A stretch of 64,000 bases of DNA. Origin: Dehalococcoidia bacterium (GTDB lineage Bacteria; Chloroflexota; Dehalococcoidia; UBA6926). Where the stretch lies: positions 512,001 to 576,000 of the forward strand of contig CAXXET010000006.1 in assembly GCA_963666115.2 (NCBI GenBank). Reading direction: 5' to 3'. Shown here one piece after another: positions 21,331-53,813 of this stretch. Position 1 is the stretch's first letter; each line of letters starts with the position of its first letter. Made by a program: the position numbers and the translations under genes. Under the pieces are notes generated by a model. That model saw only the letters and a list, made by a program, of their open reading frames with translations, was not told the origin of the DNA and searched no databases.

Positions 21331-21403
21331 GCCGAGGTAGCTCAGGTGGTAGAGCACGCGACTGAAAATCGCGGTGTCGGCAGTTCAACTCTGCCCCTCG
21401 GCA
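21331..21403 (+). tRNA. tRNA-Phe(GAA), CCA not encoded
   Basis: GCCGAGG/CCTCGGC acceptor, anticodon loop CTGAAAA, GTTCAAC T-loop. Confidence 0.95.
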
Positions 21404-21424
21404 TATGCGAACGGGTTTAGACAG

Positions 21425-21499
21425 GCGGAAGTGGCGCAGTGGTAGCGCGTCTCCTTGCCAAGGAGAAGGTCGCGGGTTCAAATCCCGTCTTCCGCTCCA
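21425..21499 (+). tRNA. tRNA-Gly(GCC)
   Basis: GCGGAAG/CTTCCGC acceptor, anticodon loop TTGCCAA, encoded CCA. Confidence 0.96.
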
Positions 21500-48334: not shown

Positions 48335-49702
48335 CTACGCGCCCCCGACGAGGCAGTTCTGGATGCGGATGTGGGGGCTGCCGTTGGAGACGGGCAGGGG
48401 GGACTGCCCGGCCTTGCCGCATCCGCCGCCCTGGTTCATATCGAGATCGTTGGCGACGGCGTCCAGGTTCTCCAGCGTGGTGAAGACGTTGCCGGAGAGC
48501 ACGACGGGGCGCAGCAGCTCCTCGATGCGCCCGTTGCGGATGCGGTACGCCTCGCCTGCGGAGAAGGTGAACATCTCCATGGACGTCATGCCGCCGTACC
48601 AGTTCTTGCAGTAGACACCGTCCTTGACTTCTGAAATCAGTTCCTCAGCGGTGGCCGCGCCCGGCTCGATGAACGTGTTGGTCATGCGGACGATGGGCGC
48701 GAATCGATAGTCCATGGCGCGGGCGTTGCCCGTCACGCCCTCGCCCATCTTGCCCGCTGTCTCCCGCGAGTGCAGCCGCCCCACCAGCACGCCCTCGCGG
48801 ATCAGGTCCGACCGCTGTCCGGGTATGCCCTCGTCGTCGTAGTCATACGAGCCGCGGAGGCCGGGGACGGAGGCGCCGTCCACGATGTTCAGGTGCTGGC
48901 CGCCGAATCGCCGCCCCAGCACCATGATTTCCTTCATTTGGTCGTTCTCATAGACGAAGTCCGACTCCGAGAGGTGGCCGAACGCCTCATGCGCGAACAC
49001 GCCGCCCAGGATGGGGTCGCAGATGACCGTGTACTCGCGCCCCTCAACCTGTGGCGCGTCAAGCAGCGCGACAGCCTTTTCCGCGATCTCGCGCATCTCA
49101 TCGTGCCGGCCCTCGAGAACGGCGTAGTCGCCCAGGCTGCCGACGCTGACGCCGTACTGCTGGACGTCCGCGTCCCTGCGGGCCACGGCGCGGGCGTTAA
49201 AGGTGACGTCCACGCGCTCCTGGCGGATGTATGAGCCCTCCGAGTTGGCGAAGTGGGTTACGCGGCGGCGGTTGCCGGAGGCGATGAACGTGCTCTGGAT
49301 GTCCGGCACGGCCCACATGGCCTCGACGTATTCCTGCAAGAGGCCGACCTTGCGGTCAAGCGGCACGAGGAACGGGTCATTGTCCAGGACGGGGGCGGGT
49401 TCGGCGATGACCGGCTCGCTGCGGACAAGCTCGCCGCCCTCGCCGGATGCAAGGCGCGCTTGCCGCACCGCCGTCGCGACGCGCTCGCGGAGGTCGTCCG
49501 ACCGGGTGAACGTGACGAAACCCCAGCCGCCGTTGACGTATGCGCGCGCCGCCCCGCCCCTGCTGGTCGAGCCGCCGATGTCGTCGATCTCATGGCCGCG
49601 CATGGAGATGTGGTTCGTGTCCAGCTCCTCCAGCCGCAGCTCGATGTAATCCGCGACGTGGCCGCTGAGGGCCTGCGCCATTTCGTCACGCATGGGCGTC
49701 AT
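48335..49702 (-). CDS. tldD: TldD metalloprotease
   Basis: HEAFGHLSE, YDDEG, RMTNT, GGCGKAGQ. Confidence 0.93.
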   Translation of the reverse strand: MTPMRDEMAQALSGHVADYIELRLEELDTNHISMRGHEIDDIGGSTSRGGAARAYVNGGWGFVTFTRSDDLRERVATAVRQARLASGEGGELVRSEPVIAEPAPVLDNDPFLVPLDRKVGLLQEYVEAMWAVPDIQSTFIASGNRRRVTHFANSEGSYIRQERVDVTFNARAVARRDADVQQYGVSVGSLGDYAVLEGRHDEMREIAEKAVALLDAPQVEGREYTVICDPILGGVFAHEAFGHLSESDFVYENDQMKEIMVLGRRFGGQHLNIVDGASVPGLRGSYDYDDEGIPGQRSDLIREGVLVGRLHSRETAGKMGEGVTGNARAMDYRFAPIVRMTNTFIEPGAATAEELISEVKDGVYCKNWYGGMTSMEMFTFSAGEAYRIRNGRIEELLRPVVLSGNVFTTLENLDAVANDLDMNQGGGCGKAGQSPLPVSNGSPHIRIQNCLVGGA

Positions 49703-49749
49703 CCATGCCTAGAATGAACGGGAAGGTCATGGAGAAAGTCTAGCATGCG

Positions 49750-50469
49750 ATGACGACGAGACGCCGCCGCCCGACCGTCCGCGCCAGGAGGACGCAGGAT
49801 GTCTACGCGCTGCTGCATGAGCAGAACGGCGAGCGGCCATGGTCCAGGCGCGCGGCGCCGATGGACGAGCTGATCTACACGGTACTCTCACAGCACACGT
49901 CCGACCTGAATACCGACCGCACATTCGCGGACCTGCGCGCCGCGTTTCCGACGTGGCGGGAAATCGTCGATGCGCCGACGGAGGCCGTGCAGGAGGCGAT
50001 CAGGCGAGGCGGGCTGTCACGGATCAAGGCGCCGCGCATCCAGGCCATCCTGCGCGAGATCGAGCGGCAGCGCGGGGAGTTCAGCATCGACTTTTTGGCG
50101 GAGATGCCGTTCGATGAGGCGCGCGCGTGGCTGCTGAGCCTGCCGGGGGTGGGGGAGAAGACGGCGGCGTGCGTGCTGCTGTTCAGCCTGGGCTTGCCCG
50201 CGCTGCCCGTCGATACGCACGTCCACCGCGTCTCAGGCCGCCTCGGACTGATCCCCAAGAAAATGAACGCGGACAAGGCGCACTACGCCCTGGAGTCCAT
50301 GCTGGACGATTCGCAGGTGTACCAGTTCCACGTCGATCTAATAGAGCACGGGCGTAAAGTCTGCCACGCCAGGCTCCCTACCTGCGGGGGTTGCGCCCTT
50401 TCGGCGCTGTGCCCAAGCAGCCTGGACCGGCGCGGGAGGGTCTTCCAGGGCGGAGATGCGCCGGATTAG
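49750..50469 (+). CDS. nth: Endonuclease III family DNA glycosylase
   Basis: LSQHT, LPGVGEKTA, VDTHV, CHARLPTCGGCALSALC Fe-S motif. Confidence 0.9.
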   Translation: MTTRRRRPTVRARRTQDVYALLHEQNGERPWSRRAAPMDELIYTVLSQHTSDLNTDRTFADLRAAFPTWREIVDAPTEAVQEAIRRGGLSRIKAPRIQAILREIERQRGEFSIDFLAEMPFDEARAWLLSLPGVGEKTAACVLLFSLGLPALPVDTHVHRVSGRLGLIPKKMNADKAHYALESMLDDSQVYQFHVDLIEHGRKVCHARLPTCGGCALSALCPSSLDRRGRVFQGGDAPD

Positions 50470-50709
50470 GGCGTCCAGCCGGCGACCGAAGAAGTGGATT
50501 TCGGCCTTGGTCCTGCGGCGGCGGGTGTGTTTCGCGATGGTGCGGGCAATCTCCAGGCCGGTGGGGAGCCTTCTGCCGTGGTTTACGCCGCGGGTGGCGA
50601 CGACGTCTTTCATGACGTCGATGGCGACCAGGCACTTAGCACCGCGATTGGTGCGGGCGATTACGGAGCGCTGGTAGTGGAGTCTGCGGGCCTGGCTGCC
50701 ACGGCTCAT
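50338..50709 (-). CDS. Small Arg-rich hypothetical protein (123 aa)
   Basis: ATG with RBS AAAGGAGA; high GC3 codon usage over the first ~90 codons; tail overlaps nth antisense. Confidence 0.6.
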   Translation of the reverse strand: MSRGSQARRLHYQRSVIARTNRGAKCLVAIDVMKDVVATRGVNHGRRLPTGLEIARTIAKHTRRRRTKAEIHFFGRRLDALIRRISALEDPPAPVQAAWAQRRKGATPAGREPGVADFTPVLY

Positions 50710-50775
50710 TTGGGTTCTCCTTTCGTGGTGTCCCTTGTGGTCTCCTTTCGGTTCGTTCCGGTTTGGCGGGTCTTG

Positions 50776-51155
50776 GGGGTGCATCGGCGCCGGACTCCAG
50801 TCATTTAGTTGAACCGTCATCGGTTCGGCGCAGTGGGAGCTTCGTTCCATCGCGCCGGCCACCGTTTTAGGCCGCGCTCCGGTCTCCAGATATTCGCGCC
50901 AGAAGCTACCCTGACGCCGGACGACTCTCGCTGCGCCGCGATTGCCGCCCCCCTATACGCCCCGTCAGCCCACCGTCACTGGCCGCCCGTGGCCACGAGC
51001 AAACCCGTCGTGGTTTCCTGGCCGGGAAACCAGAATCCATTTGGCGCCGATGCACCCCTGCAGGGAACGCCCTCCTTTTTCGCGCCCCCAGGGATTGTTG
51101 TGACGGCTCGGGTGTCGACTTTACCCTCGCCGCCGTCTGGATGGCCTCGTTCGAT
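50776..51155 (-). ncRNA. Candidate large structured RNA / 5' leader
   Basis: 16-bp perfect inverted repeat 50776-50791/51043-51058, G-U-extended only on the minus strand, many nested helices, upstream TTGCCC-18-TAACCT. Confidence 0.55.
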
Positions 51156-51320
51156 GGGGTGAGGTTAGTACAGGGGTTTTGTTTGGGGCAAGGGGTGGTG
51201 TCACATGGGGGGGGCACGTTTGCCCTGAGTCTCTTCGGCCTGGGCCTGTTGAAGGGCATGATCGGAGGGTATACTTGGGCGCGGGCGGCGAAGAGTCGCT
51301 GTGAAGGGAGACAATAAGGT

Positions 51321-51674
51321 ATGGGCGCGTTTCGCGTTGGAATTACGGTATCGAATCGAGAGGGAACCCGCTCTCGCGACGTGCAGGCTCTCGTTGACAC
51401 AGGCGCGTTCTACAGCCTCATGCCGTCGAGCACCCTGGCCGAACTCGGCATCGAGCCGACACGGACGAGAACGTTCAACGTCGCCGACGGGCGCAGCATT
51501 GACATGCCTGTCGGCGAGGCCATGGTTGAGTATGGGGGCGATCAGGTGTCGACCTATGTCGTCTTCGGCCCGGAGAACGCCAGGCCGCTCCTGGGCGCGT
51601 ACACGCTGGAGGCGCTTGCCCTGCAGGTAAATCCCCTCAAGGGGGAACTCATCCAGGCCGAGTTGACTTTGTAA
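51321..51674 (+). CDS. Clan AA (retropepsin-like, AF_0612 type) aspartic protease
   Basis: ALVDTGA catalytic motif, ADGR, LLGAYTLE. Confidence 0.88.
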   Translation: MGAFRVGITVSNREGTRSRDVQALVDTGAFYSLMPSSTLAELGIEPTRTRTFNVADGRSIDMPVGEAMVEYGGDQVSTYVVFGPENARPLLGAYTLEALALQVNPLKGELIQAELTL

Positions 51675-51677
51675 GGC

Positions 51678-51929
51678 AGGGCAACTGCCCTGCGAGAGTT
51701 GGGGATTGTGCCGACGCGCACGACGGAGTTCGAGTTGGTGAGCGGGGAGACGACACGGTATGAGCGCGGGGAGGCCGTCGTTCGGATAAACGGCTTTGCC
51801 CAGGTGACGCCGGTCGTCTTTGCCGAGGATGAGGCCGAGCCGCTCATCGGTGTCGTGACGCTGGAGCAGTTGGAGCTTGCGGTGGATTCTGTGGCGGGGG
51901 AGTTGATAGCGGCGCGGCCGCGGTTGTGA
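51678..51929 (+). pseudogene. 5'-truncated second retropepsin-like protease
   Basis: ALRELGIVP...PLIGVVTLEQL homologous to the upstream gene but lacks DTG and a start context. Confidence 0.65.
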
Positions 51930-51938
51930 CGGAAACGA

Positions 51939-53813
51939 TTACTCTTGCTTGGGCGGCCACTTCTTGGCGAAGCGCAGGATCAGTTCGAAGATGCTGGGGG
52001 TAGACTCAGTGCCAAGCACGACGTCTTGAACTTGATGCGGTAGCGCCGTGATAGGGGCGTAGTGAGCACCAGGGCGCCGTTGCCTGTTAACAGTCCCCAA
52101 AGATTGCGCCAGTTCAACCGCTACTTCCCAATTGAAGCGGCCATCCGGTGCGTTTGAACGGGCAATACTTCTGTTTATATATTCAATCCATTTCCCGATG
52201 CGATTTCTCTCATTAGGATTAAATCTCTTCGGGGCCTTCAAATGTTGCGCGATGAATGCTTCAACCGCATTAGAGTAGAATAATACTATCTGTGCTGGCC
52301 GCGTGTCTCGCCGGGGAAAAGCGACCCCTGCTAGGAGCAAGTATTCTAGGGTATCTTCACTGAGGTATACCACAACGTCACCAAGCCGTTCGCTTAGGAA
52401 ATTCCTGGCGTTTTCTTCTCTGCGAACATTAGCGATCTCCGCCAGTTCCAACAAAGTAGCACCAATCTGAGCTGGACTGCCTATCAGAAGGGCATTACTC
52501 CCCGCTTCTTGAGGTATTGGCAATTCGTGCGAATCATCAGGCACCAATTCAGTCACCGCCGTCGCCTCATTTTGTCGGCTTCTCCTGAGTGCTCTGGTTC
52601 CATCCAAATAACCCAGTTGGGACAGCCAATAAAGTGGAAGATCGGTTATACGATTGCTAAAAGCGGCTGGCCCGACGCCAAACAAATCATTGGTTTTCTG
52701 GGAACCTAGGGTTGCCAGAACCCCCAGCCGCAAATATTCTCCGTCGCCACTATCGGCATCCAAATGTGGGGCGATGAATGACAGTGCTGTTACTCCATTC
52801 GGCCATCCCGAAAACAAGTCTACCCATTCACTTTCCAGGGTATTTTTGTCCAGAGTTTCCCACAGTGCCGCAATACGACCAAACTCCCATGCCCAATGTT
52901 CCTTCGAACCTATAGGTAGATGGAGGTGGGTGCTTGTATTCTCGGATGTGGCTTCTTCTTCGAGGGCATCATCTTCGAGAAAGTCGGATTCTTCAATAAG
53001 CCACGCGCACATGTCAAGCATATTGGTCCAGTCATCCCAATTCAATTCTGCAGGGGCTGCGATGGCTCCCCTGATGAGCGCGGTCACGAAATGGCGATGC
53101 CAGTTGCTCAAAGGGTTCCAAGCATCAAACATTACCCAGTGGTTACAGAACGCTGCTAAGGTACGCTGGTACGTGCTTTGGGTGTCACTCTTATAAGAAC
53201 CGCCCTGTTGAGTAACCTGCCAATCTGGTCCAATGCCGCTCGTACCCGGCTGAAACAGATTAGTTACGAAAAAACCTTCGGGCATCGATTCCCCGACTAT
53301 AGCACGCGAAACATAGTCGACAGAAACATTGTAGCCTTCCATGTGCAATTGTACCCACTCAACTGCATGAAGCGGTGAGTTGGAGTCGAGAAATCTCTTG
53401 TAGTGCGGGCCATTGTCCGGATCATTCAGAATTCCAGGGTTTTCTTGAGTTTTTCGATATAGGATCTTCCTAATATCCTTTAGCCATTTCGGTTCATAGT
53501 CGGAAAGCAGATCGGGGCAACGATTCAGCGCATCCGCTATCAGCGAGTGCAGAGCCTCCATCTTTTCCGTCCAGTCAGGCTCGTCGGGATAGGGGAGATG
53601 AACGCGGTCAAACATGAATTTGGCATGAGCGATTGCAATCATATGTATCGCTGTTTCTGGGCCAGCATCACCATCCTTGATTGTCTCAATCGTCTCCTTA
53701 ATGTATTCGGAAGATTGGTTGATGTATTCGATCCCCGTGCTCTTTAGAACGTGCCTTACATAGTCATCGAAGACATCCTGGTTGGTTTCCGGCGTGCGGT
53801 CATCGGTGGTCAT
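51939..53813 (-). CDS. Low-GC hypothetical protein with putative C-terminal HEPN domain
   Basis: 624 aa, RBS GGGAG; YSNAVE...RRPGAH (Rx4H) near the C-terminus. Confidence 0.6.
   Translation of the reverse strand: MTTDDRTPETNQDVFDDYVRHVLKSTGIEYINQSSEYIKETIETIKDGDAGPETAIHMIAIAHAKFMFDRVHLPYPDEPDWTEKMEALHSLIADALNRCPDLLSDYEPKWLKDIRKILYRKTQENPGILNDPDNGPHYKRFLDSNSPLHAVEWVQLHMEGYNVSVDYVSRAIVGESMPEGFFVTNLFQPGTSGIGPDWQVTQQGGSYKSDTQSTYQRTLAAFCNHWVMFDAWNPLSNWHRHFVTALIRGAIAAPAELNWDDWTNMLDMCAWLIEESDFLEDDALEEEATSENTSTHLHLPIGSKEHWAWEFGRIAALWETLDKNTLESEWVDLFSGWPNGVTALSFIAPHLDADSGDGEYLRLGVLATLGSQKTNDLFGVGPAAFSNRITDLPLYWLSQLGYLDGTRALRRSRQNEATAVTELVPDDSHELPIPQEAGSNALLIGSPAQIGATLLELAEIANVRREENARNFLSERLGDVVVYLSEDTLEYLLLAGVAFPRRDTRPAQIVLFYSNAVEAFIAQHLKAPKRFNPNERNRIGKWIEYINRSIARSNAPDGRFNWEVAVELAQSLGTVNRQRRPGAHYAPITALPHQVQDVVLGTESTPSIFELILRFAKKWPPKQE

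Follow-up and report, generated by a model that had tools for sequence, protein, structure and literature searches.

The RNA gene at the locus

The window analysed here is a stretch of 64,000 nucleotides from the genome of a Dehalococcoidia bacterium (2.07 Mb, 63% G+C, nine contigs; labelled G000), and the subject of this study is a repeated unit on its minus strand that joins a gene for a large structured RNA to a captured 5' fragment of gatC. An earlier note, made from the letters of the window, had described a structured minus-strand RNA with its own promoter, followed by a small Arg-rich protein. When we searched the genome using blastn and nhmmer, five copies of the RNA element were found; the window copy is referred to as copy A and the other four as copies B to E. 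The analyses described below show that the element is one copy of a dispersed, promoter-carrying gene family for a large structured RNA that is restricted to one genus, and that this RNA family, which is not in Rfam 15, is modular, covarying and multiplied within genomes.

The RNA gene begins with a putative promoter region (Table 1). The pattern TTGNNN-18-TANNNT was present in 65 of the 67 copies with enough upstream DNA, always with a spacer of 18 nt, and the commonest hexamers were TTGACC and TAAAGT. An upstream box with the consensus ATGTG(A/C)CACC stands ahead of TTGNNN, and a promoter scan passed the same position in the long-form copies L011 and L005. The idea that ATGTGACACC-TTG is a general promoter motif was rejected, since the box is essentially confined to the copies (four of the six pattern matches in the genome); copy E carries a variant of it.

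About 25 nt of C/A-rich sequence separates the promoter from a first hairpin, HP1, which the earlier note had already seen and which has a stem of 9-11 bp and a loop of 8-13 nt across copies. The second hairpin, HP2, has the consensus GGGAGCGC / A-rich loop ending GGAGG / GCGCUCCC, with 94.7% of cells paired in 40 copies and the GGAGG loop end in 67 of 68 copies. A closing stem (P1), 10-19 bp long, could be identified in 63 of 68 copies, with GCAUC/GAUGC constant and the rest covarying. The domain that it encloses measures 248-259 nt in 17 copies (the short form, to which the window copy belongs), 431-465 nt in 38 and 498-521 nt in eight. The first sub-domain of the short form is common to some of the long forms, and its 3' half matches an optional insertion of the 498-521-nt forms; therefore, the enclosed domain is modular. 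The tail that follows contains CCAAG(A/U)CC and then C/A-rich sequence with GGAG, and GGAG or GAGG occurs within 110 nt after the closing stem in all 63 copies with a tail. The duplicated ribosome-binding site noticed earlier in the window copy was present in this tail as two GAAAGGAGA motifs.

Table 1. Features of the RNA gene and its surroundings, in positions of the window
Feature	Positions	Strand	Basis
Endonuclease III-like gene (HhH-GPD)	49750..50469	+	Pfam PF00730
Whole duplicated unit (short-form RNA gene and captured gatC 5' fragment)	50447..51215	-	similarity to four other units
RNA gene proper	50706..51215	-	extent common to copy B, 91% identity
Promoter region: upstream box ATGTGACACC, -35-like TTGCCC, 18-nt spacer, -10-like TAACCT	51162..51206	-	read from sequence
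-35-like TTGCCC	51191-51186	-	
-10-like TAACCT	51167-51162	-	
Hairpin HP1, loop with palindrome GUCGAC (51119-51114)	51102..51137	-	folding of copies, stem covariation
Hairpin HP2: GGGGGCGC / loop GAAAAAGGAGG / GCGUUCCC	51063..51089	-	alifold
Closing stem P1, 5' arm GGGGUGCAUCGGCGCC	51043..51058	-	inverted-repeat search, alignment
Closing stem P1, 3' arm GGCGCCGAUGCACCCC	50776..50791	-	inverted-repeat search, alignment
Enclosed multi-helix domain, 251 nt	50792..51042	-	consensus fold of 20 short forms
Stem extension inside the enclosed domain	51038-51029 with 50801-50792	-	
C/A-rich 3' tail (CCAAGACC...) with two GAAAGGAGA motifs (50749-50741, 50724-50716)	50710..50775	-	
123-aa open reading frame, read as the element's ATG, gatC promoter and 5' untranslated region and gatC start; beyond ~50447 antisense of the endonuclease III-like gene	50338..50709	-	

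Copies in the genus and beyond

Copy B (contig C7, 218.9 kb) is 91% identical to the window copy over ~510 nt, and the similarity stops at the ATG of the downstream open reading frame (ORF), position 50706. Copies C, D and E have only the first ~250 nt in common with the window copy and then carry ~390 nt of their own; they are 95-98% alike over 635-670 nt. The distribution of the family was examined in samples of genomes, and absence here means that it was not found in those searched. Among the other genomes of the genus, BLASTN detected relatives in 14 of 21, several of the matches lying at contig ends, and it detected none in 39 genomes outside the genus. A covariance model of the 5' module (R1; 129 positions, built from 40 copies) gave 68 matches within the genus, where 16 of the 22 genomes carry 2-10 each and the other six (G001, G010, G014, G016, G017 and G018) gave none; it also gave none in six genomes of two sister genera or in 143 genomes from 109 other genera of the class. 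When one genome per species was scanned for an exact 19-mer, 22 stretches were obtained, of which 13 were true copies, all in two Dehalococcoidia metagenome-assembled genomes, and the remaining nine were chance matches in unrelated taxa. A degenerate HP2/P1 pattern gave no true copy among three stretches in IMG/VR and at least two true copies among the 119 stretches listed from metagenome contigs.

Expansions differ from lineage to lineage: the short form has expanded in G000, G002, G003 and G007, G009 contains an expansion of eight long forms that are 86-96% alike, and copies C, D and E represent a further one in G000. In the closed genome G007:C1, all six short-form copies lie on the same strand. 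The suggestion of a repeated, possibly selfish module is consistent with these results, since there are five copies here, up to ten in kin, and insertion differences between species. In literature searches outside supplementary files, we found nothing on structured noncoding RNA in Dehalococcoidia and, among the papers listed, nothing relevant on a gatC leader RNA in Chloroflexi.

The conserved fold

The perfect 16-nt inverted repeat of the earlier note, whose arms are 251 nt apart, forms P1. When the minus strand of 50770-51064 was folded, the energy was -152.6 kcal/mol compared with -125.9 +/- 5.2 kcal/mol for 200 dinucleotide shuffles (z -5.1, no shuffle as good), while the plus strand reached only -132.1 kcal/mol (z -3.7).

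Covariation was measured in 20 aligned short forms and 19 long forms, using 500 shuffles and slid 3' partners as controls. The consensus fold of the short forms comprises 113 pairs in 15 helices, with 95.6% of cells paired compared with 36-43% in the slid controls, and that of the long forms comprises 160 pairs in 25 helices, with 87.4% paired compared with 34-46%. In the short forms, 12 pairs showed double changes, against 8.2 +/- 1.7 in the shuffles (a value reached by 10 of 500), the double-change cells numbered 41 against 15.8 (0 of 500), and the covariation score was 0.115 against 0.089 shuffled and 0.020-0.039 slid. In the long forms, the double-change pairs (69 against 47.3 +/- 3.5), the double-change cells (247 against 98.9) and the covariation score (0.265 against 0.149) were reached by none of the 500 shuffles, and slid partners scored 0.06-0.08. 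G-U cells outnumbered A-C cells by 160:51 in the short forms and 218:134 in the long forms, and this excess agrees with the promoter strand, though the fold itself was predicted on that strand. The RNA structure is under selection, and the earlier proposal of selection at the RNA level is borne out by the covariation and by the excess of G-U over A-C cells.

The individual helices proposed from the window copy fared differently in the alignment of short forms. The 16-bp stem was paired in 94% of cells, and compensatory UA/CG changes occur at two of its pairs, in 7 and 5 sequences respectively. Its 10-bp extension was present in the window copy as described and covaries (CG/UA in nine sequences, GC/AU in three), but the other copies form it in a slightly different register. 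GGGCGGC:GUCGUCC was 99% paired, with two conserved G-U pairs. CCGGCCA:UGGCCGG was 82% paired, with no covariation and six uncompensated breaks at one pair, and the alignment argues neither for it nor against it. Three of the seven proposed helices lie outside the conserved fold: CCACGA:UCGUGG has eight uncompensated breaks and gives way to the covarying hairpin GCUCG-UGGCCA-CGGGC of the enclosed domain; CUGACG:CGUCAG contains a pair that is formed only in the window copy and broken in 19 of 20 sequences, and is likewise displaced by a covarying hairpin; and GAACCG-AUGA-CGGUUC was found in eight of the 20 short forms and is deleted in 12.

Comparison with Rfam 15 agrees with the earlier view that the RNA belongs to no known family. 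At the gathering score, the whole window matched only three tRNAs, all outside the feature. Between 50300 and 51400, at E<=10, there were two chance-level matches outside the RNA core (18.6 and 16 bits, where the cut-offs are 37.5 and 45), and four long-form loci gave only tRNAs and chance matches at E<=1. The element thus has no match in Rfam 15, including tmRNA, RNase P, SRP, 6S, T-box, riboswitches and group I/II introns, and the models of OLE, ROOL, GOLLD, HEARO and raiA did not match either. Nothing in the analysis points to the ribozyme-like activity that had been suggested.

A palindromic loop in HP1 and GGAGG motifs

The loop of HP1 contains the hexamer GUCGAC in 40 of the 68 copies, GCUAGC in 18, GUCGAU in nine and GUUAAC in one. 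GUCGAC, GCUAGC and GUUAAC are perfect palindromes that are linked by paired changes at positions 2/5 and 3/4, so that the loop covaries and yet stays palindromic. GUCGAU, which was found in all nine aligned copies of G009 (the tenth has GUCGAC), is self-complementary only with G-U pairs, which argues for a constraint at the RNA rather than the DNA level. Since the loop cannot pair with itself within one hairpin, its partner would be the same loop of another molecule. Two further palindromes were observed in loops. GGCC is invariant (20/20) in the loop of a covarying short-form hairpin, and a palindrome that lies mostly within CGAGCUCG occurs in the large loop of 15 of 18 long forms; neither palindrome itself covaries, and both could be due to chance.

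Both the GGAGG of HP2 and the GGAG of the tail could base-pair with the usual anti-Shine-Dalgarno sequence, which we take to be that of G000 as well. We also considered a sponge for CsrA, and rejected it because no CsrA is encoded in the genome.

The downstream ORF is related to gatC

The 123-aa ORF that follows the RNA gene was present as described, and we examined its origin. When its product was used as a tblastn query, four related ORFs were found behind other short-form copies (46-56% identity), and residues 50-90 also matched the true gatC region in G000 and in other genomes. In BLASTP, the same residues aligned with residues 60-100 of the GatC frame of G013 (46% identity over 41 residues, E 6e-10), in which the Pfam GatC domain (PF02686, Asp/Glu-tRNA amidotransferase subunit C) spans residues 77-147 with 78.7 bits. 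The ORF can thus be aligned with GatC, but it is fragmentary and under relaxed selection: it covers only the first ~24 residues (first third) of the domain, gave no Pfam match at E<=1 and lacks a full GatC domain.

The RNA element lies between rarA and gatC in seven of the 22 genomes, the true gatC of G000 included, and gatC is free of it in the other 15. In G015, where the element is absent from this site, gatC begins ~60 nt after rarA and has its own TACAAT box, Shine-Dalgarno motif and GTG. Because of the alignment with gatC and these element-free loci, we read the ORF as the ATG of the element followed by the promoter and 5' untranslated region of gatC and the start of GatC, with the Arg-rich N-terminus corresponding to the old gatC promoter and 5' untranslated region translated in frame.

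The ORF accompanies only five of the 17 full short-form copies. The four other gatC-carrying units (G002:C10, G002:C6, G007:112.9k and G003:212.2k) match the window from 51213 to 50447, and all five units end at ~50447. The last ~30 codons of the window ORF lie past this shared end, where the frame runs on without a stop on the strand antisense to the endonuclease III gene, and the stop position differs in every copy. The dN/dS values were 0.89-1.06 between the window ORF and the four others and 0.39-0.98 among the others, with a dS of about 0.33, and the RNA part of these copies is 84-86% identical. These observations show that the ORF is a truncated 5' copy of gatC that was duplicated with the RNA, a decaying passenger and not a partner protein.

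At the gatC loci of G013, G012, G005, G020 and G021 (for example, L011:2215-2688), a start codon at the end of the element is in frame into gatC, which predicts an N-terminally extended, Arg-rich GatC in several species. A known leader upstream of gatC was not found at 20 other Dehalococcoidia loci.

Genomic sites and spread

The flank of the window unit on the side of the endonuclease III-like gene is similar to five kin genomes up to position 50421, right after the four-cysteine cluster, and the last ~16 codons and the stop of this gene (50421-50469) come from the inserted unit, where they run antisense to the gatC-like ORF. None of the five kin genomes carries an element at the site of the window unit; three of them (G003, G007 and G013) have the right-hand flank at another place, and the remaining two gave no match to it. 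The site of copy B is filled in G003 (same orientation) and G002 (inverted, with a gatC fragment) and is empty in G007, G013 and G008. The 5' end of the unit is sharp, and its 3' end is variable, once with flanking gatC DNA. When filled and empty sites of copy B were compared, the flanks proved to be shuffled arrays resembling repetitive extragenic palindromes (REP), in a different order in each genome, and this scrambling left no clean junction at which a target-site duplication could have been recognised. Several kinds of short palindromic REP-like repeat, such as GTTCACCCTGAGCCTGTCGAAGGGCGAAC and GTCATTCCCGCGAAAGCGGGAATCC, crowd the intergenic DNA of the genus; they vary in order between species and flank nearly all copies (for example, L007:1430-1500, L037 and L146:580-760).

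Long forms occupy shared sites in several species, namely between rarA and gatC, behind a tRNA pair beside a DUF35-type gene, and between nifS and nadE; therefore, the family is also stably inherited. The next long ORF after the element was co-directional in eight of 20 copies, convergent in ten and unclear in two, and copy C ends 82 nt ahead of relA. The promoter region is part of what is duplicated, which makes a route through the transcript unlikely.

Two known kinds of guide or template RNA were considered and rejected. A retron noncoding RNA (msr-msd) does not fit, since the genome has no RVT_1 and the downstream ORF is a gatC fragment, and an IS110 bridge RNA or an IscB-TnpB omega RNA does not fit, since there is no IS110 transposase and the lone TnpB-like gene is unlinked. 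This gene (Cas12f1-like_TNB, 86 bits, in a 405-aa frame) is located at G000:C4:202220-202417 (L149), far from all five copies. No recombinase or nuclease gene of the IS110 or IscB/TnpB kind adjoined the 20 copies inspected.

Several neighbours of the copies were also recorded. On the plus strand, the window contains tandem ORFs for retropepsin-like aspartyl proteases (51321-51674 and 51699-51929, the second truncated), and a long-form copy of G021 (L020) likewise lies between two retropepsin-like aspartyl protease genes. A 624-aa ORF beside copy A (51939-53813, minus strand) and a 495-aa ORF beside copy B (L002:1953-3440, plus strand) have no Pfam family, and a search of the five kin genomes gave no match to either; both resemble strain-specific sequence next to the RNA copies. 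The window tRNA pair at 21331-21496 (plus strand) is identical to a pair of G013 (L030:1658-1903). In G013, the pair has a long-form RNA copy about 12 nt or less behind it; in G000, it has none.

Proposed working and alternative explanations

Based on these results, we favour, with a probability of roughly 55%, the reading that the window holds a short-form copy of a genus-restricted set of dispersed genes for a self-associating RNA that acts in trans and spreads by DNA duplication. A sigma-70-type promoter would fire on the minus strand about 25 nt ahead of HP1 and yield a transcript of about 0.45 kb from the window copy and of 0.65-0.72 kb from long forms. The RNA would fold into the two 5' hairpins, a large domain closed by the long stem, and a single-stranded C/A-rich tail. 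The loop of HP1 would pair with the HP1 loop of a second molecule in a symmetric kissing loop, through which the RNA would act as a dimer or a larger homo-oligomer. The invariant single-stranded GGAGG motifs in the HP2 loop and the tail may serve as docking sites, most obviously for the 3' end of 16S rRNA. With self-association and GGAGG docking, the RNA would work in trans as an abundant scaffold or sponge and not as a switch of a single gene; it does not seem to be a dedicated leader, since it stands upstream of gatC in only seven of 22 genomes and ten of 20 copies face a convergent gene. The gene would multiply by duplication at the DNA level, in which the 5' end is fixed and the 3' end varies, and one such duplication would have taken the first ~88 codons' worth of the adjacent gatC region, giving rise to the window unit with its now decaying fragment.

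A more far-reaching version of this proposal, which we regard as tentative and rather doubtful, is a novel class of large RNA that forms RNA-only dimers or particles through kissing loops of HP1 and a second palindromic loop (GGCC or CGAGCUCG) and displays GGAGG motifs. Such a particle would perhaps hold 30S subunits or 16S rRNA 3' ends by means of several GGAGG anti-anti-Shine-Dalgarno motifs.

Here, we need to consider several points that weigh against the trans-acting, self-associating RNA. The use of the promoter, the ends of the transcript and the strand that is transcribed are inferred from sequence; a search for RNA runs covering window positions 49700-51700 found none, and a single run of contigs of unspecified type yielded just short fragments and loose ends that correspond to the other copies. 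The promoter that the earlier note read in the window copy, TTGCCC-18-TAACCT, stands as a conserved pattern but has a degenerate -10 and falls below the threshold of the promoter scan there (0 sites), and no intrinsic terminator was found after the tail on the RNA strand in the window copy, L011 or L005. The palindrome switches in HP1 represent perhaps only two or three events, possibly spread by recombination, and carry little statistical weight; moreover, one 6-nt palindrome among the loops of an RNA of this size is roughly expected by chance. All alignments were drawn from a single genus, and the significance based on shuffles is overstated because the copies are kin, although the slid controls, which preserve relatedness, are still far below the observed values. 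As for copying, the genome gave no match for reverse transcriptase (RVT_1; control genomes matched), for an IS110 DEDD transposase or, despite the REP-like repeats, for a Y1/RAYT transposase. Finally, the Shine-Dalgarno motif of the tail, behind which some copies have a start codon in the frame of gatC, also fits a role in cis.

Such a role in cis is the main rival, because eight of 20 copies face a co-directional gene. Here the element would be a portable expression cassette that supplies a promoter, a regulatory 5' leader, a ribosome-binding site and sometimes a start codon to a downstream gene (gatC, relA, pgk and others), with the fold controlling translation of that gene or stability of its transcript. 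The strong GGAG motif in every one of the 63 tails, the terminal ATG or GTG that runs in frame into gatC in several species, the seven genomes with the element upstream of gatC, the short distance between copy C and relA, and the spacing of about 80-550 nt to the eight co-directional ORFs would all be explained. However, the gene facing ten of the 20 copies is convergent, a start codon is missing from many tails, and gatC has retained a TACAAT box, Shine-Dalgarno motif and start of its own and is element-free in most genomes. In addition, no ligand- or tRNA-sensing family matched, and it is the peripheral hairpins that are constant, whereas the large domain is modular (about 250-520 nt). We consider the cassette unlikely; the two readings are not exclusive. 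A T-box or another leader dedicated to gatC was rejected, given the linkage in only seven of 22 genomes and the lack of a T-box or riboswitch match.

Somewhat less probable still is a non-autonomous mobile DNA element, such as a miniature inverted-repeat transposable element (MITE) or an insertion-sequence remnant. On that view, a transposase working in trans would recognise the inverted repeats and hairpins in the DNA, and the RNA itself would be functionless. Copy number that varies from 0 to 10 between species, copies that break assemblies at contig ends in G002, G012 and G020, the window's site empty in kin, the site of copy B filled in three genomes and empty in three, and the setting amid REP-like repeats are what such an element would leave behind. 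The structure of the unit argues otherwise: the 16-bp arms, which might have been the termini of a MITE, are internal, since the unit continues beyond them for about 157 nt on the 5' side and for about 70 nt (about 330 nt in the window copy) on the 3' side, and its ends carry no terminal inverted repeats. The G-U pairs and the hexamer that depends on G-U point to selection on the RNA of one strand, about 25 covarying internal helices are far more than transposition would require of its signals, several species have long forms at conserved sites, and the genome contains no reverse transcriptase, IS110 or Y1 transposase and a single, unlinked TnpB gene. As to the idea of a ribozyme-like or regulatory RNA with the downstream Arg-rich protein as its cognate RNA-binding partner, a good ribosome-binding site, a very basic product and related ORFs in four other copies speak for it, but it is very improbable and already largely refuted. 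The ORF is a truncated gatC region, aligned before and at the start of the GatC domain, and neither 12 of 17 full short forms nor the long forms at sites other than gatC carry it; in the window copy, its dN/dS is about 1 next to a conserved RNA, and its stop varies between copies.

Comparison with known systems and significance

To our knowledge, very few bacterial RNAs longer than 400 nt with dozens of conserved helices are known, and those large RNAs that have been studied (OLE, ROOL, GOLLD and raiA) each showed an unexpected architecture. The Dehalococcoidia RNA resembles such ornate RNAs (OLE, ROOL and GOLLD; raiA and HEARO) in its size class (0.45-0.72 kb), its many covarying helices and its non-coding nature. 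In the human immunodeficiency virus HIV-1, the dimerization initiation site (DIS) is a kissing loop of 9-11 nt with a 6-nt self-complementary core, A-rich unpaired flanks and alternative palindromes that are specific to lineages. HP1 is a similar palindromic-loop hairpin, but its RNA is encoded on a bacterial chromosome in a genome without reverse transcriptase. Among dispersed intergenic repeats, REP/BIME, Correia, ERIC and 'mobile promoters' vary in copy number and contain promoter-like sequence. The element shares the intergenic dispersal, variable copy number and promoter-like sequence of REP/BIME, Correia and ERIC; unlike REP, Correia and ERIC, it is five to ten times longer, has about 15-25 covarying helices and strand-specific RNA constraints, and lacks terminal inverted repeats.

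In a cryo-EM study of OLE, ROOL and GOLLD, palindromic loops that switch to other palindromes were taken as support for symmetric intermolecular kissing loops, and this signature was described for L9.3 of OLE and L21a of GOLLD (PMC12286853). The palindrome switching in HP1 is of the same kind as in OLE and GOLLD; ROOL and GOLLD are also often near tRNAs (PMC12286853), and one conserved site of the Dehalococcoidia RNA lies directly after a tRNA pair. Unlike OLE, ROOL and GOLLD, the Dehalococcoidia RNA is chromosomal in 2-10 dispersed copies, neither single-copy nor phage-borne, each copy has its own conserved promoter, the family is confined to one genus without a sequence or structure match in Rfam 15, and its oligomerisation is only inferred.

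With 68 matches that fall into three size classes and gain or lose sub-domains in a modular way, the family offers good material for structure determination, and it is suited for testing whether covariation in palindromic loops predicts the quaternary structure of RNA. It also carries a warning for annotation, namely that an Arg-rich ORF beside a repeat in a GC-rich genome can be a translated promoter joined to a gene fragment. Finally, a structured RNA gene that multiplies in genomes with no recognisable transposase nearby raises the question of how it is copied. If the particle proposal is true, then, unlike OLE, ROOL and GOLLD, its RNA would come from a promoter-equipped gene that copies itself around the chromosome, sometimes together with neighbouring coding DNA.

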